Below are positions 14,701-64,000 of a stretch of 64,000 bases of DNA, in pieces. This DNA is from Dehalococcoidia bacterium (GTDB lineage: Bacteria > Chloroflexota > Dehalococcoidia > Lucifugimonadales > JAGWBF01), in contig OY760073.1 in assembly GCA_963663025.1 (NCBI GenBank), forward strand, positions 1,833,354 to 1,897,353, given 5' to 3'. The notes below the pieces were generated by a model. That model ran no database searches. It saw only the letters and a list, made by a program, of their open reading frames with translations, and was not told the DNA's origin. Every line of letters begins with the position of its first letter. Within the stretch, counting starts at the first letter, position 1. Made by a program: the position numbers and the translations under genes.

Positions 14701-17700
14701 TCGCTGCGTACTCTTCCAGGTCGCGAGGCATCGCTTCCGGCAGCGGGGCTTCCGGCCCAACGATGACGGCGAACCCTTCACCCTTCTCTTCCAGCACCCC
14801 TGACCTGACAAGCATTTCGAGCATCCGCCGGAACAGGCGGCTGTGATCCGGGAGGACGTCCAGGCGCTGCCTCAGCTCCTCGCTGTCCACCTCTTCACCT
14901 TTAGAACGCTGCCAACCCAGTTCCTCCAGCGTTGCGAGGCTGCGAGACCATGACCATCGCTCCAGATCGGCCAGCAGATCATTCCGGCCTTTAGGGTCAA
15001 CGCCTGCCTCCGACAGGTACGTAGTGAACAACGGCGTACCTGCGGCGACTTCGTCGGTAGAAGGGAAGAAATCTGCCGACTTTATTCCCGATGGAAGGGC
15101 GCGATCTTGCCAGATGACCTCGTATAGCAGGTCATCAATCCCTTCGACTGCCGAGAGCAGAGCGGCCCTCGTAGCCCGCTTTACCGTGTACCCTTTAAGC
15201 CCACCAAGCAGCGCTCCGCTGGGGTCGTAGATGCGCAACTCGCCGCTTAGCACCTCGGCCGGCCCGACCGACGATTCCCCCTCCTGATCGGTCTCATTCA
15301 TACGTACGTGGCAGAGAATCCGGTCGGGAAGACGGTTTGTCAGCCACAGGCGCTCCCAGCCAAAGGGCAGGTAGGTAGCCTCCTCGGGGCCGATACCCAT
15401 GTTGCGTGCCACACCGACCACCTGAAAGCAGCCATCCAGCAGGAGCGGATGCACATCCAGCGGGTTTCGACCCAGGACCTCCGGCAAGGCCACTTCACCC
15501 AGTGCCTCTCCCGGGCCAGACCAGCACCTTCCCAACGTGCGGAACAGCGGTCCCAGGTCGATTCCGGTGTCAGACTTGGCGCGATAGTATGCCGGCACAT
15601 CTGCCGGAGACAGACGTCTCTTTAGCTCTTCCAGATCGATACGTTCAGCTGCATCGGGCAACCGAGGGTCGGAAACTATGTGACCCTCTATGTGCATCGT
15701 CCATTTCTCGTCAGACCCCTTGCTGAAAAGCTGGACGCGGCGCGAAGGGCCTTGATCGTCGATGTCGAGCACGATCTGAATCTTCCGAGTATCTTCGGTC
15801 GTAGCGCCCCCCGAGGCCTCCTCGGAAAAGACCAAGGGACTGTGGAGCTGCAACTCGTCCACCACGCTCCATCGGCCCCCTTCAGCAAGAGCGGCTGAAG
15901 CCGCCATAGCCCCATACAGGGCCCCCGGCGCCACAAGCCTGCCGAAGACTCTGTGGTCCTTCAGCCAGGCTGGCTCCGAAGGGGACACTTCATTCTCGTA
16001 AGTGACCTCCCCGCGAGCCGACTCATGCCGGATGCCCATCAAGGGATGCCCAGTACGGGGACGTTCTGACCTCGAAGTCTCTATCCAGTAACGTTCGCGC
16101 TGGAAGGGATAGCTCGGCAAAGAGACCCGGCGTCGGGATTCACCTGCGAATAGCCCATCAAAGGAGATCTCCAGACCGGCTTCGTATGCTTCCGCCACTG
16201 CGCAAACGAAGCTGCATTCCGGTTCCACCGTCGTGCCGTTCCGCGGCGGACGCCTCAGACTGGCCAGCACCACCGGTGCACTTGAAACGGCCTGCTGCCC
16301 GTCTCCATCGGGCCAAGCCTGGCTGGCCATAGGCCCCAGAACCGCATGGGGGCCTACCTCTACAATCATGTCAACACCGAGGTGCGCCAACGCCTTGACA
16401 CCGTCGGCGAACGCCACCGGCTCCCGAGCATGGCGCCTCCAGTAAGCCGCGTCCAGCGCCATGTCGGGGCCCACCGGCTGGCCAGTGAGGTTGCTGATGA
16501 CGGTTAGGGAGGGAGACATGGTCGCCACACCCTCCAGGTAAGTCTCAAGTGGGTCCAGGGCTGGGTCCAGAAGGGCGCTGTGGAAGGCACGAGAGGTGTT
16601 CAGCCGGCGTACCCCGATGCTCTGGGACTCGAAGTGGGACGTAGCGGCTTCTATGCCCTCCACAGGGCCGCTTACCACGATGTGGCTGCCATTGTCGGCG
16701 GCGATGCTCAACCCAACCCCGTTGGATGATGAATTCAAAGCTTGGACTTCAGACTCCACGCGCGCCCTTGGTGCAAAGACCGCGGCCATCGCACCCGGTT
16801 CCGTTGCTGATAGAAGCGTGCCCCGCGTGGCGGCGAACCGCATCCCGTCTTCCAGGCTGAATGCGCCAGCCGCCTGTGCGGCCGCTATCTCACCAACACT
16901 ATGGCCCAGCACCACGCTGGGCTGAACTCCCACACTTGACCATAGCGCCGTCACAGCGCATTCCAGCGCATAAAGGGCGGGTTGCTCCCACGCTGTGTCA
17001 GACAGGTCTCCCTTGGTGCCGGGACGACCGAACATCACGTCCAGCAGAGAGGCGCCCCTTATATCCTGGAACACCTCCTCACACCGGTCCAATACCGCCC
17101 TGGCCACGGGTTCGGTTTCGTAGAGGTCCTGACCCATGCCCAGCCACTGGCTTCCCTGCCCCGTGTAAACGAAGGCCACCTTGGAGGCCGCCCGAGGCTC
17201 CGTGCCCGTGCCAGGTTCGGCCAGCGTTTCGAGCCCCTTCCTCAACGATGCAGCATCGTGGAACACAGCGCCTGCTCGGCAATCTAGATGACTTCTCCCG
17301 ACCCCGGCCGTCCACGCCATGTCCGACAACGTCGGTTCCCAGGCCGCCCCTTCGGAACCAGCTTCTTCTTCCTGTTTGTCGAGCCAAGACAAGTAAGCTT
17401 TGGCAAGGTCCTTAAGCGCCGGCTCCGACTTCCCGGATAGGGGCAGAAACCTTGCTTTGCGCTGGCTGCTCTCTTCCTTGGGCGATGGCAATTCGACCAT
17501 AGGAGCCGGCAGCGAAACCCCCACAGCCCGGGATGGGCCGGCAGTCTGGGCGCTTGAGGCAGTTGCGCCGTTCGAGCCGAGATACTCTTCCACCACGATG
17601 TGGGAGTTTGTGCCTGTTATTCCGAAGGAGTTGACCCCTGCCAGTCGCGGCAGCTCCCGGCGGCGCGGCCAGTCCATCATGGTTGATGTCACTTGCAGGG

Positions 17701-25175: not shown

Positions 25176-28100
25176 TCATGCCCGATACAGACCTTGCCGC
25201 TTACGGCGACGCCACAGGACGACCAGGAAACTGAACAGAGGCAGCAGCCCCAGCAGCAGCACCCACCACCAGAGAGACATCTGCGACGGTGCGAAATCCC
25301 TCTCGGCTACAAGGACAGGGACCGGCGTTGGCTCGGAGATGTCAACCTCGGCCGACTCCCGGACCGGCAGGTACAGGTCGGGCTGTCCCACCTCGAACTG
25401 AGTCTCCTGCCTCTCGGGCGCGCTGGGATTGGCTATCTGCACTCCCGCCACAGGCGTCGGCGTGGGGGTGGGAGTGGGCTCCGGTGCGGGCGTGGCCGTC
25501 GGCGTCGGGGCCGGTGTTGCCGTCGGCGTGGGTGTGGGTGTGGGAGCGGCCGCAGGCATGTACACGGGCGTCGGAGCAGGCGTTGCCGTCGGCACAGGCG
25601 TAGGAGCAGGCGTAGGAGCCGGTGTCGGGGCCGGCGTGGGCGCAGGTGTCGGCGCCGGTGTCGGTACAGGCGTAGGCGCAGGCGTCGGGGCCGGTGTCGG
25701 AGCAGGCGTTGGCTCAGGTGTGGGAACGGGCGCAGCAGGTATGTTGCTGGGACCCGGCGCAGGCGTCGGCGTCGCTGTCGGCACAGGAGTGGGTGTGGGC
25801 GTAGGAGCAGGCGTCGGCGACGGTGTGGGTGTAGGCGTCGGAGGCGGCACAGGGTCGCTGAACACCGCTACCGTGTACAGCGTGGCCAGCGTTGACCATG
25901 CGCCGTACCCCTCATCGTTCTCCGCCATCACCTCCACCTTGTACGCTGTGCCCGGCTTCATGGGAGCGCTCGGGTTGCCGGCGATGGGCACCTCGTCCAG
26001 CAATGCCTCGTTGATGGTGACCGTCCAGGTGTTGGTGTAGCTGCTCCCCTGCTCCCAGAACCGCACCCAGTACCGCTTGACCGGAGGCTTGCCCGTGTCA
26101 TCCGGGGCAGTCCAGGTGGCTGTGATGGACGTAGTGGTGTTCTTCTTGGCCGTGGGTTTCCCGGGCTTGCCCAGAGGCTCCTTCACATCGGTTACGTTGA
26201 TGGTCATCGCCACCGTGTGGTCGATCTCGGTGTCGGCATTGCCTTCCGAGTCCAGCTTGTCGCTGACCGACACCTTGATGCTGTAGCTCGTCTTCGCTTC
26301 GTAGTCCGGACTGGTGTCAGTCGCCAGCGATATCTGCCCGGTCGAGCCGTCTATATCGAAGGATGCAGCGTCGGTCCCAGTTATGGTGTAGTACAAAGTT
26401 GAGCTGTCCGGGTCCGTGGCCGCCACCGCAGCGCCCACGTTGGATCCGCCTGTAGAGTTCTCAGCAATGCTGCGACTGGGGCTGGCAGGCAGCTTCGGGT
26501 CCACGTTGTCCAGGCTGCCGCTGTCCGACCAAGGGCTGTCGCCCTCATCGTTGGTGGCCTGCACCTGCACGTTGTAGTTGACGCCTCCCACCTGGCCGGT
26601 GATGGTCGTCGAGGTCCCCGTTCCTGTGAAGGATGCGTCAGTCCAGGTGGACGCGCCCTCCTTCTGGTAGCGCACATCGTAGTCGGTGATGGCCGGCTTG
26701 CCTGTCATGTCTGGGGCTGTCCAGGACACCTTCAGCGTGGTGTTGTCCGAGTCGCCCGAGGCGGTCACCTTCGGCGCATCGGGCTTGTCCGGGGCCTCGT
26801 CCACGTCGGTTACGTTGATGGTCACCGGGATCACGTAGTCGCCCGGGTTGTTGGGCACAAGGCTGAAGCTCTGGGCGTTGGCCCCGGCCTGGGCCGCCTT
26901 CACCGTCACAATGACGCTGTAGGCCTTCTTGGCCTCGTAGTCCAGGCTGTCGCCGGTCTTCACCTTGATCTGGCCCGATGAGCTCTCGATGGTGAAGGTG
27001 GAAGCGTCGGTCCCGCTCAGGCTGTGGGTCAGGGTGTAGCTGTTGGGGTTGGATGTCGCGGTCACCGGAGCGCCCACGTTGGCCCCCGCCGCCGAGTTCT
27101 CATCGACGTCCCGGCTCACGCCGCCGGCCTTCGTTATGGCTGTGCCGCTGGCGGACCAAGCCCCGTTGCCCTCGTTGTTGACTCCCCGCACCTGCACCTC
27201 GTAGCTCTTGCCCGAGGTCAGACCGGTCAGCGTCGTCGAGGTTCCCGTGCCGGTGAAGCTGTGGCTGCTCCAGTTGGATGCCCCGTGCTGGCGGTACTGC
27301 ACATCGTAGTCGCTCAGGGCAGGCTTCCCCGTCATGTCCGGTGCCGTCCAGCTCACGTCGATCTTGCTGGTGGGCGTGGTCGTGTTGAGCGAAACGCTTA
27401 TGGAAGGCGCGGGAGGAGGCTCGGCAACATCATCCACCTGGATGATTACCACGATCTCGTAGTTGAGAGTGGTGCTGCCCTGCTTGGTGGCCGCAATCTC
27501 CACTTCCACGTCGTAATGGTCCGTGGCTTCGAAGTCCAGGGTGGTCCCGCTCTTGACCGTTATCTTGCCGGTGCTGCTGGCAATCTCGAACTTGCCCTTG
27601 TCCGTTCCGTCCAGGGTGTGGGTCTTGGTGTAGCTGCTGTCGATGGTCTTGGTTACGGTGCCTACCTCGGCGTTGGCGGCGGAGTTTTCATCTATGTTCA
27701 GGGTTACAGAGTCCGCGTTGGTGGTGGCGTGGCCCGCATTGGACCAGCCGCTGTCACCCTCGTCGTTCTTGGCCTTCACCTGCACCTCGTAGTGCTCATT
27801 TTCGGTGAGGCCGCTGATGGTGGTGGAGGTGCCGGTTCCGGTGAAGGAATGGCTGGTCCAATTCGACGAGTGGGCCACCCGGTACTGCAGGTCGTAATCG
27901 CTGACGGCCGGCTTGCCGGTCATCGTCGGGGCTGTCCACGACACATCCAGCTTGGTCTTGGGTGTCGTGGAGTTGGGGGTCACCGTCGGCGTGGAAATGG
28001 TGGGCGGCTCGTTAACGTCGGTTACGTTGATGGTCACCGGGATGATGTAGTCGCCCGGCGCGTTGGGGTCCAGGGTGAAGCTCTGGGCATTCGCCCCCGC

Positions 28101-31100
28101 GGACGCCGCTGTCACCGTTACCGTTACGCTGTAGGTCGTCTTGGTTTCGTAGTCCAGGTTCGTTCCCGACTTCACGCTTATCTGCCCGGTGCTGCTGCTT
28201 ATCTCAAACTTTCCGGCATCCGTTCCGCTCAGGGCATGGGTCAAGGTGTAGTTGTTGGTGTTGGCTGTGACCGTCACCGCCGCGCCGACGTTGGTGCTGG
28301 CCGCCGAGTTCTCTGCGATGCTGCGGGTTATGGCGGTTGAGCTGGCGGCGACCGTTATCCCAGTGCCGGTGGGAGACCAGGGGCTGTCGCCCTCATCGTT
28401 GGTGGCCAACACCTGCACATCGTAGCTCTTGCCCTTGGTCAAGCCCGTCAAAGTCGTGCTGGTGGTGGCGCCGGTGAAAGAGGCATCGGTCCAATCGCCC
28501 GTCCCGGTGAGCCTGTACTGCACATCATAGTCGGTGATGGCCGGCTTGCCGGTCATGTCCGGCGCACTCCAGGACACATCCAGCTTGGTGGACGGCGCGG
28601 AGGAATTGACCGTAACCGTCGGCGCAGCCATCCTGGAAGGAGGCTCGCTCACGTCGGTGACGTTGATGGTCACCGTGGACGTGTCGTCGATGGTGTTGTC
28701 CGTTCCCTCCTGGGCATTCTTCCCGTCGGTTACGTTCACCGTCACGCTGTAGGAGGTCTTGGCTTCGTAGTTGGGGATGTTCCCCGTCTTTACCTTTATC
28801 TGGCCGTCACCGCTCCCGATGGTGAACTTGCTGGCGTCGGTCCCGGTCAGCGAGTAGGTCAGGGTGTCTTTGTCGGCGTCGGTGGCGGATACGGCGGCGC
28901 CGATGTTGGTCCCCGCCGCCGAGTTCTCGTCGATGCTCCGGGTGGCAGTGGCCGGGATCACCGGGGCAGCGTTCTCCTTGGTCTTCTTCGACCCGGAAGC
29001 CGACCAACCGCTGTTGCCCTCGTCGTTGATGGCTTTCACCTGCACATCGTAGGTGGTACCCGCCGTCAGACCGGTCAAGGTCGTGCTGGTTCCCGTTCCG
29101 GTGAAGCTGTGGGAAGTCCAGGTGGAGTCGCCGCTCTTCTTGTACTGCACATCGTAGTCGCTGACGGCCGGCTTGCCCGTCATCGTTGGCGCGGTCCACG
29201 AAATTTCCAGCTTGTACTTGGGATCGGTAGCATGGGCCTCTACCGTCGGCGCGGAGATGGTGGGCGGCTCGTTCACGTCGGTTACGTTGATGGTTACCGG
29301 GATGGTGTAGCTGCCCGGCGCGTTGGGGTCCAGGGACTGGGCGTTGGCGCCCCCTCCTGCCGCGGCCACCGTTACGGTCACCGTTACGCTGTACGAAGTC
29401 TTGCTCTCGTAGTCCGGGATGTTGCCCGTCTTTACCTTTATCTGGCCCGTGGTCGAGCCGATCTCGAACTTGCTGGCATCCGTCCCGCTCAGGCTGTGGG
29501 TGTAGGTGTAGCTGCTGTTGGCCTTTGCCGTAACCGCCGCGCCGATGTTGGTGCCGGCGGCTGAGTTCTCGGCGATGGAGCGGGTTACGCCCCCGGCCGT
29601 GGTTATGGCTGTGCCGCTGTCGGACCAAGCCCCGTTGCCCTCGGCGTTGACAGCCCGCACCTGCACCTCGTAGGTCTTGCCCGAGGTCAGACCGGTCAGA
29701 GTGGCGCTGGTCCCCGTTCCGGTGAAGGATGCGTCGGTCCAGGAGGAGTCACCGGAGAGCCGATACTGCACGTCGTAGTCGCTGACGGCCGGCTTGCCGC
29801 TCATCTGAGTGGTCGTCGGCGCGGTCCAGGAAGCGTCGATCTTGCTCGTCGGCGTCGTGGTGTTGGCCGCCACCGTCGGCGTACCCAGCTTGGGCGGAGG
29901 CTCGTTCACGTCGGTTACGTTGATGGTCACCGGGATCACGTAGTCGCCCGGCGCGTTGGGGTCCACCGACTGCGCGTTGGCGCCCTGCGTCTTTGCGGCC
30001 GCCGTGACCGTCACGGTTACGCTGTAGGAAGTTTTGGCTTCGTAGTCCGGGATGTTCCCCGTCTTCACCGTTATCTGCCCCGTCGAGGAGCCTATCTCGA
30101 ACTTGCTGGCATCCGTTCCGCTCAGGGCGTGGGTGTAGGTGTAGGCGGTGTTGGTAGCCTTGGCCGTTACCGCCGCTCCCACGTTGCTTCCCGCCGCCGA
30201 GTTCTCGGCGATGGAACGGGTAACCGAGCTGGAGGTGGTGATGGCGTTGCCCGTGTCGGACCATGCCCCGTTGCCCTCGGCGTTGGTGGCCCGCACCTGA
30301 ACGTCGTACTTCTTGCCCGAGGTCAGACCGGTCAGACTGGTGCTGGTCCCCGTTCCGGTGAAGCTGTGGCTGCTCCATGTCGATTCCCCGGTCTGGCGGT
30401 ACTGCACATCGTAGTCGCTGATGGCCGGCTTGCCCGTCATGGTCGGCGCAGTCCACGACACATCCAGCTTGGTGGTCGGCGTCGTGCTGTTGGCCGCCAC
30501 TGTCGGCGCAGCCATCTTGGGTGGCGGCTCGCTCACGTCGGTCACGATGATGAGGGCGCTGTAGGTTACGTCGAGGATGTTCCTCTGGAGGTTGTTCTCC
30601 ACGGCCCGGAGGGTGAGGCTGTAGCTGGTCTTGCTCTCGAAGTCCGGGACGTTGCCCGTCTTGACCTGTATCTGGGCGGACTGGGCTGTCTTGTAGCCGG
30701 TGTCCGTGCTGAGCTTGAACTTGGAGCCGTCGGTCCCGCCCAGGGTGAACTGCAGCGGGTAGTAGTCGGTGGCGTTGACGTTGAACTTCCCGCCCACGTT
30801 GCCGTTGACCGCCGTGTTCTCCGCCAGGTACAGGATGAGCGACGACCCGGACCAGTGGCCGGGCCCTTCGTCGGCGATCTGGGAGCGCACCTGCACCTCG
30901 TACTCCTTGCCGGCGGTCAGGCCGGTGATGGTCGTGCTGGTGGCCAGGCTGTTGGTGGTGTCGGGCATCTCCGTCCAGGAGCTGGTGCCCCACTCCCGGT
31001 ACCGCACATCGTAGTCGTTCAGCGTGGTGCCTGTCATCGGCGTCGGCGCGGTCCACGATACGTCCAGGGCCGTCGTGGGGTTGGTGGAGTTCTGGGCCAG

Positions 31101-32933
31101 CGTCGGCCTGTCCACGTTGGGCGCGCGGACGTCGTTCACGTTGATCTGGATGTTGCCCCCCACACTCGTGTTCTCGACGGTGTACCGGAAGTTCCCGCTG
31201 TACGAGGTCTTCGTCTCGTAGTCCAGCGTCGTCCCGTCCTTGACCGTGATCTGGCCCGTGCTGGAGTCGATGTCGAAGTAGGTGGCAACGTCGCCGCCGA
31301 GGGAGTAACTGCTGCCGTCACCGGTGTTCGCCCCACCCACGCTCCCCACCACGGTGTCCTTGGGCTTGTTCTCCTGGACGCTCTTGGTCTCCTTGCAGTC
31401 GAAATGCTTCACCTCCAGGGAAATCGAGTCGTGAAGTCCGTCGGGGTCCGTCGCCGTGTAGTGGAAGGAGTACCAGTTCAGGGGCGGATGCCTGAGGCTC
31501 GCCACGGCGTAGCCGTTGGAATTGATGGTGGTGCTGACGACCTTGGACGAACCCGCCGTGTAGGTCAGCGTGTCGTCTTCCGGGTCGTAGAAGTGCTTGG
31601 TGTGGCCGCTGCTGGGGACATAGGTGACGGAGCCGCTGTAGCAGTGGCCGTATTTCGACCAGAACTGCCCGAGAAGCTGGGAGCCGCTGCTCTTGATGCT
31701 GGCGTAGGGCGCGTGGTTGCCCGACGTGTCCGACGCCCGGATGTGGATGATCACGGACGGGGTGCTCTTGTTGGAGGCGTAGGCTTGGTAACAGGCTGCC
31801 TTGGTGGGGAACCACTTGGTGGGTGTGCCGCTCAGGGTGCGGGTGGAAGCGTTCCAGGAAATCCCGGGGGGCAGCTGCGCCCCCTTGCTGCCGCATCCCT
31901 GCGAGAGCTTGTAGGTGATGTTGGGGTCGCCGGTGGCCGCCGGCAGCGTTACGTTGACGGCAACGCCCTGCGTCCACTCCAGCAGGGTGGGCGGTGCGGT
32001 GACCCAGGATAGGCCCGCCTGGATCTGTCCGCCCTGCGCGCTGACCAGGCCCTCCTCCTGCCCGCCGTTCCGTTGCTGTTGCTGGGACGGCTCCGGCGTG
32101 GGCGTAGGAGTCGAGGTCGGTTCAGGGGTGGGCTCCTGCGTTGGTTCCGGCGTAGGCTCAGGAGTCGGCTCCTCAGTAGGTTCGGGAGTGGGCGTCGGCG
32201 TGGGGTCGGGCGCCGGCGTGAATGGACCCGAAGCCGATGAGTTGGTCCAGGCGCTGTCGCCGCTGCTGTTGCGGGCGCGCACGCCTACGACGTAGGTCTT
32301 GGCGTTGTCCGCGCTGATGTCAATGCTGGCGGATGGGTGGTCCAGGGCCGCCAGGTCCCAGCTTGCGCCGTCGTCGGAGCTGTAGGTTACGTGGTAGCTG
32401 GTTGCGCCGGAGACGGCATCCCACGACGCCGTGATCGAGCCGTCGGACCGGGCCACGGAGACTGAGGCGACGGGGCCGGGCGCAGGATCGGGCGTGAAAG
32501 GCCCGGCGGGCGGGGAGTTCTTCCAGGCGCCCCAGCCCTGGTCGTTGCCGGCGCGCACACCGACGATGTAGGTCTTGGCGTTATCGACGCTGAAGGTGAG
32601 GCTGTTGGTTGGAACGTTCCGGTGATCATCCACCGGAGCGTGCCAGCTTGCGCCGTCGTCGTCGCTGTAGGTTACGTGGTACTTGGTCGCGCCTTCGATG
32701 GCATCCCAGCTTGCCGTCAGGGCGCCGTCGGACCGGGCCACCGACACCGAGGACGGCGTGGCAAGGGTCGAGGCCTCTCCCTTGCCGCCCTGGGACGGGG
32801 TCAGGGTGGCGGCCATGGAGCTGAAGAGGAGGCAGAACACCAGGAAAAGGTGCATGGCCAAGCGGACGGGAGCATCGGGGAGCTTGGCCAGATTCATCAG
32901 CTTGGCGTTCAAGGGATTATCGGCTGCCTGCAA
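25176..32933 (-). CDS. Giant cell-surface protein 1 (2585 aa) with alternating cadherin-like and fibronectin type III modules, a PT-rich stalk and a C-terminal TM anchor
   Basis: TTG start with GAGGAGGAG SD (32938-32946). Signal peptide present. FN3 blocks (...[17 protein letters not shown]...Y.VQVRA.N.EG.G.WS). Cadherin-like blocks ([10 protein letters not shown](V/I)GAAV...[10 protein letters not shown]...[10 protein letters not shown]). The tail is ...[32 protein letters not shown]. Confidence 0.9.
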
Positions 32934-33030: not shown

Positions 33031-34888
33031 CGTTCGCCCCTCGAGTCCCCTCAGGACGAACGGGGAACCTGGAAATCGAAGGATGAACGGGGAACCTGGG
33101 ACTGGAAGGGCGTGGGTATGACGAATGGCCGCCCCGTCATTGCGGCGAAGGCCGCAATCCAGAAAAGTCTGGGACTGGGGCAGGTTTCCTACTTTGATGC
33201 TTGCTGTGATGTTGGAGCCGGACTGGAACCCGGCAACGCTCCGTCCTGGATTGCGGCCTTCGCCGCAATGACGAAAGGCGTTGCACTCCGTTCGTCCTGA
33301 GGGGACTCGAAGGATGAACGGAGAACCCGGGACTGGAACAGCCTGGGTATGACAAAGGGCCGCCCCGTCATTGCGGCGAAGGCCGCAATCCAGGAAAGTC
33401 TGGGACTGGGGCAGGGTCCCTACTGGAATGCCTACCGTGATGTTGGAGCCGGTCTGGAACCCGGCAGCGCTCCGTCCTGGATTGCGGCCTTCGCCGCAAT
33501 GACGAAAGGCGTTGCTGCCCGTTCGCCCTTCGAGTCCCCTCAGGGCGAACGGAGAGCCTGGGACTCGAGGGATGAACGGAGAACCTGGGACTGGAACAGC
33601 TTGGGTATGGCGAAGGGCCGCCCCGTCATTGCGGCGAAGGCCGCAATCCAGAAAAGTCCGGGACTGGGGCAGGCTTCTTACTGTAGTGTCTACCGTGATG
33701 CTGGAGCCGGACTGGAACCCTGCAGCGCTCCGTCCTGGATTGCGGCCTTCGCCGCAATGACGAAAGGCGTTGCTGCCCGTTCGCCCTTCGAGTCCCCTCA
33801 GGACGAACGGAGAGCCTGGGACTCGAGGGATGAACGGAGAGCCTGGGACTGGAACAGCGTGGGTGTGGCGAAGGGCCGCCCCGTCATTGCGGCGTAGGCC
33901 GCAATCCAGGAAAGTCTGGGACTGGGGCAGGCTTCTTACTGTAGTGTCTACCGTGATGTTTGAGCCGGACTGGAACTCGGCAGCGCTCCGTCCTGGATTG
34001 CGGCCTACGCCGCAATGACGAAAGGCGTTGCACTCCGTTCGTCCTGAGGGGACTCGAAGGATGAACGTACAATCGTGGACTGGAACAGCCCGCGCATGAC
34101 GAAGGGCGTTGTTCTCCGTTCGTCCTGAGGGGACTCGAAGGATGAACGGAGAACCCGGGGCTGGAACAGCCTGGGTATGACAAAGGGCCGCCCCGTCATT
34201 GCGGCGTAGGCCGCAATCCAGAAAAGTCCGGGACTGGGGCAGGTTCCCTACTGCAATGCCTACTGTGATGTTGGAGCCGGACTGGAACCCGGCAGCGCTC
34301 CGTCCTAGATTGCGGCCTTCGCCGCAATGACGAAAGGCGTTGTTCTCCGTTCGCCCTTCGAGTCCCCTCAGGACGAACGGAGAACCAGGAACTCGAAGGA
34401 TGAACGGGGAACTCGGGACTCGAAGGATGAACGGGGAACTCGGGACTCGAAGGATGAACGGGGAACCTGGGACTGGAAGGGCGTGGGTATGACGAAGGGC
34501 CGCCCCGTCATTGCGGCGTAGGCCGCAATCCAGGAAAGTCTGGGACTGGGGCAGGTCCCCTACTGTAATGCCTGCTGTGATGCTGGAGCCGGAGTGGAAC
34601 CCGGCAGCGCTCCGTCCTAGATTGCGGCGTAGGCCGCAATGACGAAAGACGTTGTTCTCCGTTCGTCCTGAGGGGACTCGAAGGATGAACGGGGAACCAG
34701 GGGCTGGAACAGCGTGGGTATGGCGAAGGGCTGCCCCGTCATTGCGGCCTTCGCCGCAATCCAGAAAAGTCCGGGACTGGGGCAGGCTTCTTACTGTAGT
34801 GTCTACCGTGATGCTGGAGCCGGACTGGAACCCGGCAGCGCTCCGTCCTAGATTGCGGCCTTCGCCGCAATGACGAAGGGCGAACGGC
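33031..34888. repeat. REP array 1: seven composite units, each a type-A 140-bp inverted-repeat element plus type-B hairpins with 27-bp subrepeats
   Basis: GTCATTGCGGCG anchors at 33136, 33367, 33625, 33883, 34195, 34507 and 34738. Unit lengths are 231/258/258/312/312/231. Confidence 0.9.
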
Positions 34889-35373: not shown

Positions 35374-38300
35374 TTATGCCTGGTACAGGCGTTGCCCCTT
35401 CCGGCGACGCCACAGGATGGCCAGGAAACCGAACAGCGGCAGCAGCCCCAGCAGCGCCACCCACCACCACAGAGACATCTGCGACGGCGCGGGATCCCTC
35501 TCTACCACAAGATCACGGACCGGAGCAGGCTCAGGGATGTCAACCTCCGCTCCACCCAGCCCATCACTGTCATCATCGGCCGCTTCCCGGACCGGCAGGT
35601 TAAGGTCGGGCTGCCCCACCTCGAACTGGGACTCCTGCCTCTGGGGCGCGCTTGGATTGGCTATCACCTGTCCCGCCACGGGCGTCGGCGTGGGCGTAGG
35701 TGTGGGCGTAGGTGTGGGATCAGGCGTAGGTATGGATGTCGGGGCCGGCGTTGCCGTCGGCACAGGTGTAGGGGCGGGCGTAGGCGCCGGCGTAGGTACT
35801 GCCGTCGGGGCCGGCGTGGGCGCTGCCGTCGGTACAGGCGTCGGGGCAGGCGTAGGAGCAGGTGTTGGCGCCGGTGTCGGCGCGGGCGTAGGCGCAGGTG
35901 TGGGAACGGGCGCAGCAGGTATGTAGCTGTGACCGGGGGCCGGCACAGGCGTGGGTGTCGGAGTCGGCGACGGTGTGGGGGTGGGGGTCGGAGTGGGAGC
36001 AGGCGTCGGAGACGGTGTAGGCGTAGGAGTAGGAGTGGGCGTAGGCGTCGGCACAGGGTCGCTGAACACTGCCACCGTGTACAGCGTAGCCAGCGTTGAC
36101 CATGCGCCGTACCCCTCATCGTTCTCAGCCATCACCTCCACCTGGTAGGCCGCGCCCGGCTTCATGGGCACGCTGGAGTTGCCGCCCGTGGGCACCTCGT
36201 CCAGGAGCGCCTCGTTGATGGTGACCGTCCAGGTGTTGGTGTAGCTGCTACCCTGCTCCCAGAACCGCACCCAGTAACGCTTGACCGGAGGCTTGCCCGT
36301 GTCATCCGGGGCAGTCCAGGTGGCGGTGATGCTCGTTGTGGTGTTCTTCTTGGCCGTCGGCTTCCCAGGCTTGCCCAGGGGCTCCTTCACGTCGGTTACG
36401 TTGATGGCCACCGCCACGGTGTGGTCGATCTCGGTGTCAGCGGCGCCCTCCGAGTCCAGCTTGTCGCTGACGTTCACCGTGACGCTGTAGCTGGTCTTGG
36501 CCTCGTAGTCCGGGCTGGCGTCGTCGGCCAGCGTTATCTGCCCGGTCGAGCCGTCTATATCGAAGGACGCAGCGTCAGTCCCCGTCAGGCTGTACTCCAG
36601 GGTATCCCCGTCCGGGTCGGTGGTTGTTACCGGGGTCCCCACGTCGGTTCCGCCTGTAGAGTTCTCGGCGATGCTGAAGGTGGGGCTGGACGGCAGCCTC
36701 GGGTCCACGTTGTCCAGGCTGCCGCTGTCCGACCAGGAGCTGTCGCCTTCATGGTTCCTGGCCAGCACCTGCACATCGTAGTTGACGCCTCCCACCTGGC
36801 CGGTGACGCTCGTCGAGGTCCCCGCACCCGTGAAGGAGTGGGAGGTCCAGGTGGAATCGCCGCTCTTCTTGTATTGAACATCGTAGTCGGTGATGGCCGG
36901 CTTGCCCGTCATGTCCGGGGCTGTCCAGGACACGTTCAGCGTGGTGTTGTCCGAGTCGCCCGAGGATGTCACCTTCGGCGCATCGGGCTTGTCCGGCGGC
37001 TCGTCCAGGTCGTTCACGTTGATGTTGACGAAGGCCGAGGCGTCTATCCCGGTGTCGGCGTTGCCGTCCTCGTCCTTGCCGTCGCTGACCTGCACCGTGA
37101 CCAGGTAGTTGGTCTTGGTTTCGTAGTCCAGGGTTGTGCCGCTCCCGACGGTTATCTGTCCGGTGGAGGAGTCTATGTCGAACTTGTCCGCATCCGTCCC
37201 GATCATGGAGTAAGTCAGCGTGTCGCCGTCGGGGTCGGTGGCGGTCACCGGGGCGCCCACCTTGTCGCCCGTGGAGGAGTTCTCGTCGATCTCCCGTACC
37301 ACTCCGAAGAGGCCGATGTCCTTGAACTTCGCCTTCTCATTCACGTCGGTAACGTTGATGGTCACCGGGATGACGTAGTCGCCCGGGTTGTTGGGAACAA
37401 GGCTGAAGCTCTGGGCGTTGGCCCCGGCCTGGGCCGCCTTCACCGTCACGATGACGCTGTAGGAAGTCTTGGTCTCGTAGTCCAGGTCCGTGCCGTTCTT
37501 GACCGTTATCTGGCCGGAGCTGCTGGCGATCTCGAACTTGGAAGCGTCGGTCCCGCTCAGGCTGTGGCTGAAGGTGTAATTGTTGGGGTTGGAGGTGGCG
37601 GTCACCGGAGCGCCCACGTTGGCCCCCGCCGCCGAGTTCTCGTCAACATCCCGGCTCACGCCCCCGGCCTTCGTTATGGCTGTGCCGGAGTCCGACCAAG
37701 CCCCGTTGCCCTCGTTGTTGACCCCCCGCACCTGCACCTCGTAGCTCTTGCCCGAGGTCAGACCGGTCAGAGTCGTCGAGGTCCCCGTGCCAGTGAAGCT
37801 GTGGCTGCTCCAGTTGCTTGCCCCGTGCTGGCGGTACTGCACATCGTAGTCGCTCAGGGCAGGCTTCCCCGTCATGTCCGGGGCTGTCCAGGAAACGTCT
37901 ATCACGCTGGTGGGCGTGGCCGTGTTGAGCGAGACGCTTATGGACGGCGCGGCCGGCGGCTCGTTCACATCGGTTACGTTGATGGTGACCGTGATGGTGT
38001 CGTCGATCTTGGTGTCCGCGTTGTCGTCGGTGTCCTTCCGGTCGCTGACCTCCACGACCACGCTGTAGGAGGTCTTGGCTTCGTAGTTGGGGATGTTGCC
38101 GGCCTTGACGCTTATCTGTCCGGTGTTCAGGCCGACGTTGAACTTGGCGCCGTCGGTCCCCGACAGGGTGTAGTACAGCGTGTGCCCCTCGGTGTCGCTG
38201 GCTGTCACCGCCGCGCCCACGTTGGTCCCCGCCGCCGAGTTCTCGGCGATGCTGCGGGTAGCCGTGGTGTCCGGGAACTCGGCGTGCACGTTCTTGTCCT

Positions 38301-41300
38301 GGGTGTTGGTACTGCCGGAAGTTGACCAGGCGCTGTTCCCCTCGTCGTTCTTCGCCTTCACCTGCACCTCGTAGCTGGTCCCTTCGGTCAGACCCGTCAG
38401 CGTCGTGCTGGTCCCAGTGCCTGTGAAGGTGTGGGAAGTCCAGTCGGAATCGCTGGTCTTCTTGTACTGCACATCGTAGTCGGAAATGGCAGGCTTGCCC
38501 GTCATGTCCGGGGCTGTCCAGCTTACGTCCAGCTTGGTCTTGGGCGTCGCCGCGTTCTGGGTAACCGTCGGCGCATCGGGAGCGGACGGAGGCTCGTTCA
38601 CGTCGGTAACGTTGATGGTCACCGCTATGGTGTCGTCAGCCGTCGTGTCCGCCGTGCCGCTGGTGTTCTTGCCGTCGGTTACGTTCACCGTGACGCTGTA
38701 GGATGTCTTGGCCTCGTAGTCGGGGATGTTCCCCGTCTTCACGGTGATCTGCCGGGTGGTAGCGTTGAAATCGAACTTGCTGGCGTCGGTGCCCGTCAGC
38801 GAGTAGGTGAGCGTGTTGAAATTCGTGTTATTGGTGTCCGGGTCGGTGGCGGCAGCAATCACCGCGCCAATGTTCGTCCCTGCTGCCGAGTTCTCGGCGA
38901 TGCTCCGCGTGGCGGTGTCGTCGCTGAACTCGGGACCTTCGTTCACGTCGGTTACGTTAATCGTCACCGGTATGACGTAGTTGCCCGGCGCGTTGGGGCT
39001 GAGGCTGGAGCTCTGGACCTGCGCCACCGCCGCCGTCACCGTGACCGTTACGCTGTAGGAGGTCTTGGTCTCGTAGTCCAGGCTTGTTCCCGTCTTCACG
39101 GTGATCTGGCCGGTGCTGCTGGCGATTTCGAACTTGGAAGCGTCGGTCCCGCTCAGCGCGTGGGTCAGGGTGTAGCTGTTGGGGTTAGAGGTAGCGGTGA
39201 CAGCCGCGCCCACGTTGGCCCCGGCGGCCGAGTTCTCGGCCACGCTGCGGGTTACGGCGCCGGCCTTCGTTATGGCTGTGCCGCTGTCGGACCAGGCCCC
39301 ATCGCCCTCGTCACTGCCGGCCCGCACCTGCACCTCGTAGCTCTTGCCCGAGGTCAGACCGGTCAGCGTCGTCGAGTCCCCCGTGCCGGTGAAGCTGTGC
39401 GAACTCCAGGTGGATGTCCCCGTCTGCCTGTATTGCACATCGTAGTCGTCCACGGCGGGCTTGCCCGACATCTGCGTGGTCGTCGGCGCGGTCCACGACA
39501 CATCCAGCTTGCTGGACGGCGTCGTGCTGTTGGCTGCCACCGTGGGCGCGCCCATCTTGGGCGGCTGCTCGTTAACATCGGTAACGTTTATGGTGACCGG
39601 GATGATGTAGTCGCCCGGCGCGTTGGGGTCCACTGACTGCGCGTTTGCGCCCTGCGTCTTTGCGGCCGCTGTGACGGTGACCGTTACGCTGTAGGACGTC
39701 TTGCTCTCGTAGTCCAGGCTGGTCCCGCTCTTGACCGTTATCTGCCCCGTGCTGCTGGCGATCTCGAACTTGGAAGCGTCGGTCCCGCTCAGCGCGTGGG
39801 TGTAGGTGTAGGTGGTATTGCTAGATTTGGCTGTCACCGCCGCGCCCACGTTGGTCCCGGAGGCCGAGTTCTCGGCGATGGAGCGGGTTACTGCGCTGGC
39901 GTCGGTGATGGCGCTGGACGAGTCGGACCAGGGGCCGTCGCCCTCGTGGTTCCCGGCCCGCACCTGCACCTCGTAGCTCTTGCCATTGGTCAGACCGGTC
40001 AGAGTGGTGCTGGTGCCCGTGCCGGTGAAGCTGTGCGAACTCCAGGTGGATGTCCCCGTCTGCCTGTATTGCACATCGTAGTCGTCCACGGCGGGCTTGC
40101 CCGACATCTGCGTGGTCGTCGGCGCGGTCCACGACACATCCAGCTTGCTGGCCGGCGTCGCGCTGTTGGCTGACACCGTGGGCGTACCCATCTTCGGCGG
40201 CGGCTCGTTTACGTCGGTTACATTGATGGTCACGGTGATGGTGTCGTCCACCACATCGTCGGCGGTGTCGTCGCTGGCCTTCTTGTCCTTGACGCTCAGG
40301 GTCAGGGTGTAGGAAGTCGTGGTCTCGTAGTCCAGCGCGGCGGCCACGTCGATGGTCCCGTTGTACTGGCCCAGGCTGAAGTCGCCGACCCCCGTGCCGG
40401 TCATGGAGTAGTACAGCGCGTCATTGTCATCGTCCGTGGCGGCCACCTTGCCCACGTCATCCCCGACCTCCGCGTCTTCCGCGATCGTCAGGGTAATGCT
40501 GTCCGAGGAGAACTCGGGCTCGGTCTGGTCGTGGGTCTTCACCTCGTCGGTGTCCGACCACGCCCCGTCGCCCTCGTCGTTGGCGGCCCGCATCTCCACC
40601 TGGTAATCGGTCTTGTAGGTCAGGCCCGTGATAGCGTAGTACTTCAGGTCCTTGCCCAGGTCGTCCACCTGTGTCCAGGTGCTGTCGCTCTTCTTCTTGT
40701 AACGCACGTCGAAGTGGGTGACGGCCGGCTTGCCCGTCATCGTGGGAGACTGCCAAGTCACCGCTATCTGGTACTTGGGGCTGCTCGCCTGCTGCTTCGC
40801 CGACGGGTCCATCTTGGGCGGAGGCTCGTTTACGTCGGTCACGCTGATGGTGATCGTTATGGTGTCGTCAACCACCGTGTCCGCCGTGCCGCTGCTGTCC
40901 TTCAGGTCGCTGACGCCCACGGTTACGGAGTAGGAGGTCGTGGACGATTCGTAGTCCAGCGTCGTGCCGGAGCCGACCTTTATCTGGCCGGTGGCGCTGT
41001 CTATGGTGAAGGATGATGCGTCGGTGCCGCTCAGCGAGTAGGTCAGCGTGTCGCTCTCGGTGTCGGTGGCGGTGACCGCCGCGCCCACGTTGACATCCGC
41101 CGCCGAGTTCTCGGCGATGCTGCGGGTGGCCGTGTCGGCGGAGAACTCCGGGTCAACGTTCTTGTCCTGCGTCTTGCCTTCGCCGGGGTCCGACCATGAG
41201 CTGTTGCCCTGGCTGTTTTTTGCCTGCACCCGCACCTCGTAGGTGGTGCCCTCGGTCAGGCCGGTGATGGTCGTTTCCAGGGTGCTGCTGCTGTATTCGT

Positions 41301-42570
41301 TGCCCCACTGTATCCAGTTCGTCTCGCTCTTCTTCTTGTATTCCACGAAGTAGCCGCTGACCTTGGGTGCGCCGTAGGTGGCGGTCCAGTCCACGTCCAG
41401 CTGGGTCTTGGGGGTGGTGGTGTTCTGGGTCACCGTGGGCGCGTTCGGCTTGTGCGGCACCGCCGGCGAAGCCGTCGTGGCTTCCGCCACGTCGGAGTAT
41501 TTCCAGCCGCAATGCCCGAAGTCGAGGTGGCTTGAATTGAACCTTATGGCGAACATCACTTCGTAGGTGGTGCTGGATTCAAGGCTCTCGATGGCCTCCT
41601 TTGACGTGTTGGCGTTTACGGTTTTCTCAGACCAGGTGCTGTCGCTCTTTTTTTTCCATTCGATTTTCGCTTGGTCTGCGCTGCCGTTGGCGGAGTTTAT
41701 CGACAACTGGAGAGCATAGAGGCTGTGCGATGGGTTGGTGGATGCGCTGACCGAGAGGGACGACTTCAGGCTGGAGCAGCCCACTCCGGCCGTCTCCAGC
41801 ACCTCTATCTTGAAGGACAGCATGACGGTGTCGGTGCCGTCGGTGGCGGAGTAGCGGTAGGTGGCCTGGGTACTGGTTACCGTCGGCGTTCCCGTGATGG
41901 TCCGCGCCGAAGCGTCGAAGGACAGGCCGGACGGCAGGCTCGGGGAGAGGGAGTAGGTTATCGTTCCGCTGCCTCCGGTGGCCTCCGGCAGGGTCAGGGT
42001 GGTGATGGCATCGTCCTTGTGCCAGGACTGGTCGGAGATGGTTGAGCCGTTGAAGGAGAGGTCGGCGTTCTGGGGCTGCACCGCGGCCTCGATGTCGCCT
42101 TCGGGTTCCGGCGTGGGATCGGGTTCCGGCGTGAAGGGCCCGGCAGACGGGGAGTTCTTCCAGGCGCCCCAGCCCTGGTCGTTCCCGGCGCGCACGCCAA
42201 CGATGTAGGTATTGGCGTTGTCAACGCTGAAGGTGAGGCTGTTGGTTGAAACGTTCGTGTGGTCGTCCACGGGGGCGTGCCAGCTTGCGCCGCCGTCGTC
42301 GCTGTAGGTTACGTGGTACTTGGTCGCTCCTTCGATAGCGGCCCAGCTTGCTGTCAGCGAGCCGTCGGACCGGGTCACCGACACCGAGGATGGCGTGGCG
42401 GGGATCGAGGCCTCCCCCTTGCCGCCCTCGCGCGGGGTCAGGGTGGCGGCCATGGAGCTGAGGAGGAGGCAGAACACCAGGAAGAGGTGCACAGCCAAGC
42501 GTACGGGAGCATCGGGGAGCTTGGCCGGATTCATGGGCTTGGTATCCATAGGGCTATTGGCTGACTGCAA
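35374..42570 (-). CDS. Giant cell-surface protein 2 (2398 aa), a paralog of protein 1 with cadherin-like/FN3 modules, a PT-rich stalk and a C-terminal TM anchor
   Basis: TTG start with GAGGAGGAAG SD. The N-terminal roughly 170 aa and C-terminal roughly 700 aa are near-identical to protein 1, while the central modules are diverged. Confidence 0.9.
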
Positions 42571-42665: not shown

Positions 42666-44299
42666 CCCGTTCGCCCTTCGAGTCCCCTCAGGACGAACGG
42701 AGAGCCTGGGACTCGAGGGATGAACGGAGAACCTGGGGCTGGAACAGCCTGTGTATGACAAAGGGCCGCCCCGTCATTGCGGCGTAGGCCGCAACCCAGG
42801 AAAGTCTGGGACTGAGGCAGGTTCCCTACTGCAATGCCTACTGTGATGTTGGAGCCGGACTGGAACCCGGCAGCGCTCCGTCCTGGATTGCGGCCTTCGC
42901 CGCAATGACGAAAGGCGTTGCTGCCCGTTCCCCCTTCGAGTCCCCTCAGGGCGAACGTACAATCGTGGCTTGGAACAGCCCGGGTATGGTGAAAGGCGTT
43001 GCCTTCCGTTCGTCCTGAGCCTGTCCTGAGGCTCTCGAAGGGAGGGACTCGAAGGATGAACGGGGTACCCGGTACTGGGACAGCCTGGGTATGACCAAAG
43101 GCCGCCCCGTCATTGCGGCGTAGGCCGCAATCCAGGAAAGTCTGGGACTGGGGCAGGTTCCCTACTGCAATGCCTACTGTGATGTTGGAGCCGGTCTGGA
43201 ACCCGGCAGAGCTCCGTCCTGGATTGCGGCCTTCGCCGCAATGACGAAAGGCGTTGCTGCCCGTTCGCCCTTCGAGTCCCCTCAGGGCGAACGGAGGACT
43301 TGGGACTCGAAGGATGAACGGAGAACCTGGGACTGGAACAGCCTGGGTGTGGCGAAGGGCCGCCCCGTCATTGCGGCGAAGGCCGCAACCCAGGAAAGTC
43401 TGGGACTGGGGCAGGTTTCCTACTTTGATGCTTGCTGTGATGTTGGAGCCGGACTGGAACCCGGCAACGCTCCGTCCTGGATTGCGGCCTTCGCCGCAAT
43501 GACGAAAGGCGTTGCACTCCGTTCGTCCTGAGGGGACTCGAAGGATGAACGGAGAACCCGGGACTGGAACAGCCTGGGTGTGGCGAAGGGCCGCCCCGTC
43601 ATTGCGGCGTAGGCGGCAATCCAGGAAAGTCTGGGACTGGGGCAGGCTTCTTACTGTAGTGTCTACCGTGATGTTGGAGCCGGTCTGGAACCCGGCAACG
43701 CTCCGTCCTGGATTGCGGCCTACGCCGCAATGACGAAAGGTGTTGTTCTCCGTTCCCCCTTCGAGTCCCCTCAGGGCGAACGGAGAGCCTGGGACTCGAG
43801 GGATGAACGGAGAACCTGGGACTGGAACAGCTTGGGTATGGCGAAGGGCCGCCCCGTCATTGCGGCGAAGGCCGCAATCCAGAAAAGTCCGGGACTGGGG
43901 CAGGCTTCTTACTGTAGTGTCTACTGTGATGTTGGAGCCGGCCTGGAACCCGGCAGAGCTCCGTCCTGGATTGCGGCCTTCGCCGCAATGACGAAAGGCG
44001 TTGCTGCCCGTTCGCCCTTCGAGTCCCCTCAGGACGAACGGAGAGCCTGGGACTCGAGGGATGAACGGAGAACCTGGGACTGGAACAGCCTGGGTGTGGC
44101 GAAGGGCCGCCCCGTCATTGCGGCGAAGGCCGCAATCTAGGAAAGTCTGGGACTGGGGCAGGCTTCTTACTGTAGTGTCTACCGTGATGTTGGAGCCGGA
44201 CTGGAACCCGGCAGCGCTCCGTCCTGGATTGCGGCCTTCGCCGCAATGACGAAAGACGTTGTCCTCCGTTCGTCCTGAGGGGACTCGAAGGATGAACGG
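42666..44299. repeat. REP array 2: six composite units paralogous to array 1
   Basis: Anchors at 42773, 43109, 43367, 43598, 43856 and 44114. Unit lengths are 336/258/231/258/258. Confidence 0.9.
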
Positions 44300-47309: not shown

Positions 47310-48712
47310 GGGCGCCCGTTCGTCCTGAGGGAACAGGCTGCCCTAGCAATCCGTTCGTCCTGAGGCTCTCGAAGGGCGAACGGGCGGGTGGGCTTTACAG
47401 CACAGCCTATCGTCGTTCCCGTGCAAACTTATCCTCGTGAAAACGGGGTGCCGGAGCCTGCCTTGATTTGCAGCACGGCTGTCCGTTCGTCCTGAGGGAA
47501 CAGGCTGCCCTAACAATCCGTTCGTCCTGAGGCTCTCGAAGGGCGAACGGGCGGGTGGGCTTTACAGCACAGCCTATCGTCATTGCGGCGAAGGCCGCAA
47601 TCCAGGACGGAACGGCAGGGGCCCAGGATGGCTCACACCAATACCCCAAGGCATTGCAGTAGGGAACCTGCCCCAATGACGTACTTTCCTGGATTGCGGC
47701 CTTCGCCGCAATGACGGAGCAGCCTTTCGGAATAAACGGGGCTTTCCAAGCATTGCGCCCCTTACCCCTCCTCCCACTGGTCGCGCCTTTCGACGCACCC
47801 AGCCTCCCCGAAGCCCTGCCCCCTATCGTCGTTCCCGTGCAAACGGGAACCTACCCTGGCTCGCAGCACGACTGTCCGTTCGTAATTCGAGAGCCCCTTC
47901 GAGAGCCTCAGGACAGGCTCAGGGCGAACGGGCGGGTGGGCTTTACAGCACAGCCTATCGTCATTGCGGCGAAGGCCGCAATCCAGGACGGAACGCTGCC
48001 GGGTTCCAGGCTAGCTCCAGCACCACAGTCGTTATTACAGTAGGGAACCTGCCCCAATGACGGACTTTCCTGGATTGCGGCCTTCGCCGCAACGACGGAG
48101 CAGCCTTTCGGAATAAACCGGGCTTTCCAAGCATTGCGCCCCTTACCCCTCCTCCCACTGGTCGCGCCTTTCGACACACCCAGCCTCCCCGAAGCCCTGC
48201 CCCCTATCGTCGTTCCCGTGCAAACGGGAACCTACCCTGGCTCGCAGCACGGCTGTCCGTTCGTCCTGAGGGAACAGGCTGCCCCAGCAATCCGTTCGTC
48301 CTGAGGCTCTCGAAGGGCGAACGGGCGGGTGGGCTTTACAGCACAGCCTATCGTCATTGCGGCGAAGGCCGCAATCCAGCACGGAACGTTGCAGGGGCCC
48401 AGGATGGCTCACACCAATCCCCCAAGGCATTACAGTAAGGAACCTGCCCCAATGACGGACTTTCCTGGATTGCGGCCTTCGCCGCAACGACGGAGCAGCC
48501 TTTCGGAATAAACGGGGCTTTCCAAGCATTGCGCCCCTTACCCCTCCTCCCACTGGTCGCGCCTTTCGACGCACCCAGCCTCCCCGAAGCCCTGCCCCCT
48601 ATCGTCGTTCCCGTGCAAACGGGAACCTACCCTGGCTCGCAGCACGACTGTCCGTTCGTCATTCGAGAGCCCCTTCGAGAGCCTCAGGACAGGCTCAGGG
48701 CGAACGGGCGGG
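47310..48712. repeat. REP array 3: about 3.5 units of a 381-395-bp composite (types A, B and C), with A elements inverted relative to arrays 1 and 2
   Basis: GTCATTGCGGCG anchors at 47579, 47960 and 48353. Type-C anchors at 47827, 48208 and 48603. Confidence 0.9.
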
Positions 48713-63397: not shown

Positions 63398-63429
63398 ACT
63401 AGGTCAATCTGTCGCGTAGCGGAGGCCGG

Positions 63430-64000
63430 ATGGCAATCATCCCGGACCGGGACCGGAACGACCTCAAAAGGGACCTCCGGAAGAACCTGAAGAACGAAGT
63501 GACGATCAAGTTCTTCGGCCAGGGGTCCTCCCTTCTTGCCGTGCCCGGCAGGGAGTGCCGCTACTGCCCCCAGACCCAGGATCTCATGGAAGAGATGACC
63601 GGCCTCTCGCCCAAGCTGCACCTGGAGGTGTACAACTTCTACACCGACACCGAAGCGCGGGACAAGCTGGGCGTAGAGCGCATCCCGGCCATCGTTCTGG
63701 GAGACAACGGAAGCTCCCGGCTGAAGTTCTACGGCATCCCCCTCGGCCCAGAGTTGTATGCCCTGGCCGACAGCGTGAAGACCATCTCCCGGGGAGTCAG
63801 CCCTCTGAGCATGGAGTCGCGCAAGAAACTGCGCAAGGTCAAGAAGCCGGTGCATATTCAGGTGTTCGTCACACCAAATTGAGGGTACTGCCCCAGTGTG
63901 GCCAGGCTGGCCCACGCAATCGCCCTGGAAAACCCGAACATCACAGCCGACGTTATCGAGGTGGAGGAGTTCCCTAACCTGGCGCAACGATACATGGTGC
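63430..64000 (+). CDS. Two-domain thioredoxin-fold protein disulfide oxidoreductase (archaeal PDO/glutaredoxin-like), candidate selenoprotein with in-frame UGA at 63880-63882; 3' end is partial
   Basis: The first domain has CRYC. The second reads VFVTPN-TGA-GYCPSVARLAHAIALENPNITADVIEVEEFPNLAQRYMV in the same frame, so the TGA replaces the first Cys of the VFVTPTCPYCP-type motif. A hairpin lies 13 nt downstream. Confidence 0.6.

Follow-up and report, generated by a model that had tools for sequence, protein, structure and literature searches.

A very probable selenocysteine codon in the gene of a two-domain PDO-type oxidoreductase from Dehalococcoidia

Gene content and reading frame of the locus

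The window analysed here is a stretch of 64,000 nucleotides from a Dehalococcoidia bacterium. Close to its 3′ edge, an ORF of 150 codons starts at an ATG, ends in ...HIQVFVTPN and runs into a TGA (Table 1). Past this triplet the same frame stays free of stops up to 63999, with the translation GYCPSVARLAHAIALENPNITADVIEVEEFPNLAQRYMV. An earlier note on this DNA had described the in-frame TGA with the frame left open to the window edge, a CRYC motif retained in the first domain, and a hairpin 13 nt after the TGA. On recheck all coordinates were correct, the CRYC motif was located in the first domain, and both the position and the pairing of the hairpin were reproduced.

The gene order around the PDO gene was conserved in the flanks of relatives and comprises inositol-1-phosphate synthase, a GT4 glycosyltransferase, a CDP-alcohol phosphatidyltransferase, the PDO gene and DMRL (lumazine) synthase (window 61645–63397). 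The first three genes, upstream of the PDO gene, suggest synthesis of an inositol phospholipid or inositol glycolipid. No gene for a redox partner was seen adjacent to the PDO gene, neither in the window nor in the flanks of relatives.

Elsewhere the window holds the gene of a large type I polyketide synthase, adjoined by a 4′-phosphopantetheinyl transferase gene, and two genes for giant proteins, presumably located at the cell surface, with short repeats of 12, 24 or 36 nt near their 3′ ends. Three tandem arrays adjoin these two giant genes; each repeat unit holds a hairpin, ATTGCGGC-GAAG-GCCGCAAT. The ORFs called mechanically across the arrays (717 and 591 aa) have a low GC3 (~0.61) and are probably spurious.

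Table 1. Features of the window, with positions on the analysed stretch
Feature	Position	Strand	Basis or remarks
4′-Phosphopantetheinyl transferase (PPTase) gene	7555..8325	-	
Type I polyketide synthase (PKS) gene	8711..18877	-	3388 aa; 2 KS + 2 AT + DH, methyltransferase, ER, KR and ACP domains
Giant protein gene	25176..32933	-	2585 aa; many fibronectin-III and cadherin domains
Tandem array	33076..34877		units of ~231–258 bp; 85–93% identity
Giant protein gene	35374..42570	-	2398 aa; many fibronectin-III and cadherin domains
Tandem array	43044..44299		units of ~231–258 bp; 85–93% identity
Tandem array	47470..48660		units of 381 bp; 85–93% identity
Shine-Dalgarno-like GGAGG	63421..63425	+	4 nt upstream of the ATG; read from sequence
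Coding sequence, predicted two-domain PDO-type protein	63430..64000	+	window ends at residue 190 of ~239; translation, TIGR02187.2, relatives of 238–240 aa, PDB 1J08/1A8L
ORF up to the in-frame TGA	63430..63882	+	150 aa; start ATG 63430
C43-R-Y-C46, redox motif of the N-terminal domain	63556..63567	+	TGC CGC TAC TGC; C43/C46 invariant in 25 aligned homologs; opposite CQYC of PfPDO
UGA predicted to be read as selenocysteine, residue 151	63880..63882	+	Cys in this column in ~240-aa homologs; TGA and open frame in the window and 16 loci
U-G-Y-C, predicted redox motif of the C-terminal domain	63880..63891	+	TGA GGG TAC TGC; opposite CGYC/CPYC of homologs; all four Gly codons occur at codon 152 among Sec-type species
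Zone of suppressed synonymous variation, codons 153–165	63886..63924	+	diversity 0.07–0.10 in Sec-type genes; reflects the RNA element and its lower stem
Candidate SECIS apical hairpin, GUG-bulged U-GGCC-AGGCU-GGCC-CAC	63896..63915	+	GTG 63896–63898, bulged T 63899, GGCC 63900–63903, loop AGGCT 63904–63908, GGCC 63909–63912, CAC 63913–63915; -10.0 kcal/mol; comparative conservation; published bSECIS constraints

Family assignment of the read-through protein

When the TGA was translated as Cys, the 190-residue portion encoded in the window scored 192.4 bits against the NCBIfam profile TIGR02187.2 ('PDO_seleno_TRX'), matching profile positions 2–179 of 209 and passing the curated equivalog cut-off of 185 despite truncation of the protein by the window edge. 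The Pfam domains DUF7088 and Thioredoxin_3 were recognised in the read-through protein. A full-length relative aligned over residues 20–228 with the PDOs of P. horikoshii (1J08, E 8e-34) and P. furiosus (1A8L, 2e-30), and Aquifex 2AYT and Aeropyrum 2HLS also aligned across both domains. In the motif alignment to these solved structures, CRYC lay over CQYC and TGA-GYC over CPYC. Since the alignment with 1J08 and 1A8L covers both motifs, each chain is predicted to contain two thioredoxin-fold units, with the C-terminal redox motif at the N-terminal end of the first helix of its unit. The family score and the structural alignments thus bear out an assignment to the Pyrococcus PDO type that had been proposed from the sequence of the window.

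Like the hyperthermophile PDOs (PfPDO 1A8L, P. horikoshii 1J08, Aquifex 2AYT/2YWM, Aeropyrum 2HLS), the window protein would combine two thioredoxin folds in one chain, of ~230 aa in those proteins, with one CxxC-type motif per unit (CQYC/CPYC there, CRYC/UGYC here). It differs from them in carrying a predicted selenocysteine (Sec) in place of Cys and in lacking a 5-residue insertion that follows the EN motif in the hyperthermophile proteins. Sequence identity to this group is only moderate, and the PDO activity and the reductant of the window protein are putative.

Selenocysteine and cysteine forms among relatives

A homolog search of 5.8 billion proteins yielded 604 homologs, whereas an exact look-up of the 150-aa product of the window itself gave no entry. 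DNA was retrieved for homologs as well as for 34 species-representative genomes; with two exceptions, the latter were Dehalococcoidia or Chloroflexi MAGs. Even the nearest of them (L009) shared only ~89% DNA identity with the window. Homologs of ~240 aa with 65–76% identity read VFVTPS-C-GYCP and place a Cys exactly at the TGA column. This matching of columns in an alignment with Cys-containing homologs agrees with the earlier proposal that the TGA stands for the first Cys of the C-terminal CxxC. A second group of homologs, up to 90% identical, ended exactly at residue 150. These 150-aa relatives all end in TGA, followed by ~88 in-frame codons of a conserved second domain.

A TGA in the Cys column with the frame open for ~88 more codons was found in 17 Dehalococcoidia/Chloroflexi species including that of the window, and protein identity among them ranged from about 50 to 90%. 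The U-G-[YF]-C type was represented by 13 species (window included) and the U-P-H-C type by four. Cys occupied the column in 13 further species, and the motif was lost in seven. Among 20 local homologs whose alignment spans the TGA column, 13 have a Cys there. In a neighbour-joining tree, Sec and Cys forms were interleaved, indicating that exchange between them occurred several times. We also searched for other Cys/TGA pairs by all-against-all tblastn over ~750 kb (window plus flanks). Only the PDO gene was convincing there; other matches concerned off-frame or antisense ORFs.

The species with a lost motif deserve separate mention. In these homologs of other Dehalococcoidia (L027, L028, L033, L035, L037, L038 and L041; match starts at ~10001), the C-terminal CxxC was degraded to DVDC, DTYS, DTEC, EANS, DQTS or QMPH. 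Their N-terminal domain was conserved, and one thiol or none was left in the second domain.

Synonymous constraint downstream of the TGA

Gene callers restart at a GTG five codons past the TGA. Codons 152–156, which lie between the two triplets, exhibited synonymous or conservative changes only. Across the Sec-type species, Gly152 is encoded by GGA, GGC, GGG or GGT and Pro155 by CCC, CCG or CCT, and Cys154 is invariant. These codons vary as coding sequence and are therefore translated, which argues against a gene split at the TGA.

Superimposed on this pattern was a second, local constraint. Pairwise synonymous diversity of TGA-type genes amounted to 0.07–0.10 in codons 151–165 versus ~0.38 gene-wide, and Cys-type genes reached 0.45–0.49 in the same codons. 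Codon choice in TGA-type genes is restricted to GCC for Ala158 and Ala161, to TTG or CTG for Leu160 and, without exception, to the rare AGG for Arg159. There is hence an RNA constraint beyond the needs of the protein, and it is specific to TGA-type genes.

A conserved hairpin inside the coding sequence

The hairpin lies within this zone, and in an extended fold, 63882–63886 pair with 63922–63926 and 63889–63891 with 63916–63918. All seven of its seven pairs were present in each of the 13 U-G-[YF]-C species. Of the 12 relatives with this motif, 11 have the same 20-nt hairpin, from which that of the window differs at a single loop position, with both folding at -10.0 kcal/mol. Where the window has the loop AGGCU, every other U-G-[YF]-C species has AGGUU; in the published loop pattern N1-G-[G|U]-N-N2, this position is the unconstrained 'N'. 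In the remaining relative (L012), an Ala-to-Val change keeps the pairing as a G-U wobble (-7.3 kcal/mol). The four species of the UPHC clade encode A-R-V-A, not A-R-L-A. An apical GGCC-CGUGU-GGCC persists in these species in the same register, whereas the lower GUG/CAC stem is absent.

In Cys-type genes the hairpin was eroded (mean energy -5.0 kcal/mol), and the mean of motif-less genes was -3.2 kcal/mol. One Cys-type gene (L026 10451–10510) carries TGC together with an intact hairpin and encodes a protein 94–97% identical to those of Sec-type L018, L019 and L021. Judged from this sequence comparison, its hairpin resembles the remnant of a SECIS, a fossil such as would be expected shortly after a change from Sec to Cys (TGA to TGC).

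A covariation test found the apical four pairs invariant except for one G-C to G-U change, and pairs changed on both sides (n = 3) were confined to the lower stems. With its invariant apical stem, the hairpin shows no compensatory covariation to judge by, and the RNA evidence is thus conservation, not covariation.

The bacterial SECIS model of Zhang and Gladyshev (in the version of PMC13188914) follows the pattern N1-G-[G|U]-N-N2. It specifies an apical loop of 3–9 nt (here 5 nt, AGGCU, or GGC with an A-U closing pair), an upper stem of 4–16 bp (here 4 + 3 bp with a bulged U), a G within the first two loop positions (here position 2), a spacing from UGA to loop of 16–37 nt (here 21 nt) and an MFE of -7.5 kcal/mol or lower (here -10.0 kcal/mol). 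Every published bSECIS constraint therefore agrees with the window hairpin, although this is a weak test given that a simplified version of the model accepts 39% of random TGA triplets from the window. That figure was obtained with 1500 such triplets: 39% had a hairpin downstream that satisfied the model, and in 16.5% this hairpin equalled or exceeded the stability of the one described here. Likewise, the single-sequence fold of 61 nt (63880–63940) was not significant against shuffled sequences (z = -0.61). Taken alone, the hairpin is not distinctive in a sequence of 62% GC, and the comparative data carry the case. The description of the hairpin as SECIS-like thus held up through the comparison of relatives, with conservation in TGA-type and erosion in Cys-type genes; by itself the structure is at chance level.

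The SECIS minihelix of E. coli fdhF reads GG-U-UGCA-GGUC-UGCA-CC. The window hairpin resembles it in the short GC-rich upper stem, in a bulged U on the 5′ side 4–5 bp below the loop, in the GG(U/C) of the apical loop and in its position inside the ORF just after the UGA. The elements lie about one codon further downstream, with the bulged U at +20 compared to ~+17 in fdhF and the loop G at +26/+27 compared to ~+22/+23. The stem sequence differs as well, and binding of SelB to the window hairpin is putative.

Selenocysteine machinery and TGA usage

Searches for tRNA-Sec in the window (Rfam gathering scan and ARAGORN) returned only a tRNA-Ala, and ARAGORN detected no tRNA-Sec in 34 flanking loci of up to ~20 kb each. 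Genes of the Sec machinery were likewise found in neither the window nor these loci. At the level of the class, Sec use is documented. Dehalogenimonas alkenigignens possesses selC, Sec-synthesis genes (DEALK_04960-04970), a Sec-specific elongation factor and selenophosphate synthase (PMC4918011), and 46 selenoprotein genes are listed in BSepDB for 'Dehalococcoidia bacterium 10f4566d-...' (PMC13326102). The latter organism corresponds to our locus L028, whose PDO homolog has lost the motif.

In the window, TGA serves as an ordinary stop. The PPTase gene, the PKS gene and the genes for DnaJ and an RsmD-like methyltransferase all end in TGA; for the methyltransferase, the Pfam match reaches to within a few residues of the stop. 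The PKS gene, in spite of its 3388 codons, contains no internal TGA. As TGA is a normal stop for other genes of the window, many of them Pfam-verified, global TGA recoding is excluded, in accordance with the earlier note, which had considered it unlikely.

Proposed decoding and alternative explanations

We consider it highly likely, on the strength of the sequence comparisons, that this is a genuine selenoprotein gene encoding a two-domain PDO-type oxidoreductase with Sec at UGA 63880–63882. The gene would give rise to one polypeptide of ~239 residues, a PDO-type thiol-disulfide oxidoreductase in which an N-terminal thioredoxin fold with CRYC is joined to a C-terminal one with U-G-Y-C. Decoding of the UGA as Sec would be directed by the SECIS stem-loop directly downstream within the coding sequence, the loop of which starts 21 nt past the UGA. 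SelB loaded with Sec-tRNA(Sec) may bind this hairpin and bring Sec to the ribosome, competing there with release factor 2. In the product, a selenenylsulfide U151-C154 is expected to replace the usual disulfide, so that the C-terminal site should be more reactive. The reductant of archaeal PDOs is a thioredoxin-reductase-like flavoprotein, and the same type of protein is probably the reductant here.

A related scenario assumes two outputs from the same gene, with Sec insertion yielding the two-domain enzyme when selenium is available and termination at the UGA yielding a single-domain CRYC protein when it is scarce. The 150-aa product would indeed be a complete first domain with its invariant CxxC, and Sec insertion at bacterial UGA codons is generally in competition with termination. 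We saw no sign, however, that the truncated product is used, and the Cys-type relatives make the full-length protein only. In PDO structures such as 1A8L, moreover, both folds are packed as one unit. A UGA acting as a selenium-dependent switch between the 150-aa CRYC protein and the full selenoenzyme is thus unlikely; if it existed, Sec/Cys turnover in soil and groundwater Dehalococcoidia would track the local selenium supply.

It appears very improbable that the TGA is a true stop in a split or decaying gene, leaving a 150-aa N-terminal thioredoxin-fold protein and a separate C-terminal protein of ~82 aa translated from GTG 63896. Public gene calls of relatives do read this way, as a 150-aa ORF plus an ORF of 79–83 aa (L001 3001–3717; L004, L005 and L007 likewise). 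The names given to the 150-aa ORF are 'thioredoxin family protein' (GenBank MCE2465045.1), 'AhpF' (a JGI call) and 'hypothetical protein'. Against such a split, the TGA is kept in 17 species despite their divergence and always falls in the Cys column, and the five codons between TGA and GTG evolve as coding sequence, including the invariant resolving Cys154. Initiation at this GTG would have to take place within the 5′ arm of the conserved hairpin, and the C-terminal domain would lose its CxxC. The suppression of synonymous changes after the TGA, being specific to TGA-type genes, likewise speaks against two independent genes.

Reading of the UGA without selenium, be it by near-cognate insertion of Trp or Cys or by lineage-wide reassignment of UGA, we regard as similarly far-fetched. 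The absence of Sec machinery from the window and the 34 flanking loci would fit this explanation. The use of TGA to end many Pfam-verified genes of the window, and its absence from the interior of the giant PKS gene, do not. Furthermore, the site is a redox Cys column, the classic position of Sec; a conserved SECIS-like element would be without a role in leaky read-through; and Sec use is documented for the class. A sequencing or assembly error, in which TGC or TGT at 63880–63882 was miscalled as TGA, is refuted by the recurrence of the same TGA in independent assemblies (ENA, NCBI, JGI, Logan) and in 16 other species, leaving it a practically negligible chance.

Relation to the known family and implications

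The assignment as a selenoprotein gene connects the locus to a family already on record. TIGR02187 PDO_seleno_TRX, or AhpF-N-terminal-domain-homolog family, has been listed among the selenoprotein families since 2005 and belongs to those predicted with high confidence (PMC9312934, PMC13188914). A survey of 2006 reported it in Carboxydothermus and Symbiobacterium (PMC1794560), its exemplar is ABB15282.1 of Carboxydothermus hydrogenoformans (PMC9312934, PMC13188914, PMC1794560), and it has since been reported in Asgard archaea (PMC13188914). The window gene shares with this family a profile score above the cut-off, a UxxC in which Sec would take the place of the first Cys of the C-terminal CxxC, the coexistence of Cys-containing homologs, and a candidate SECIS inside the coding region. 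It differs in its host lineage, soil and groundwater Dehalococcoidia/Chloroflexi MAGs, and the likeness to ABB15282.1 is drawn through the family HMM and published descriptions.

The window gene is therefore very probably a further, publicly mis-annotated, member of a known selenoprotein family, and knowledge of selenoproteins in general is unchanged by it. What is new is modest, namely that the copies of this lineage are truncated in public annotation and that they show with unusual clarity how SECIS elements are conserved and decay. The main value lies in the annotation, as the truncated gene calls hide a selenoprotein together with the active site of its C-terminal domain. In addition, the close Sec/Cys pairs, including a Cys-type gene with an intact hairpin, form a clean natural data set that may be used to follow SECIS decay after a Sec-to-Cys change and to refine bacterial SECIS models for Chloroflexota.
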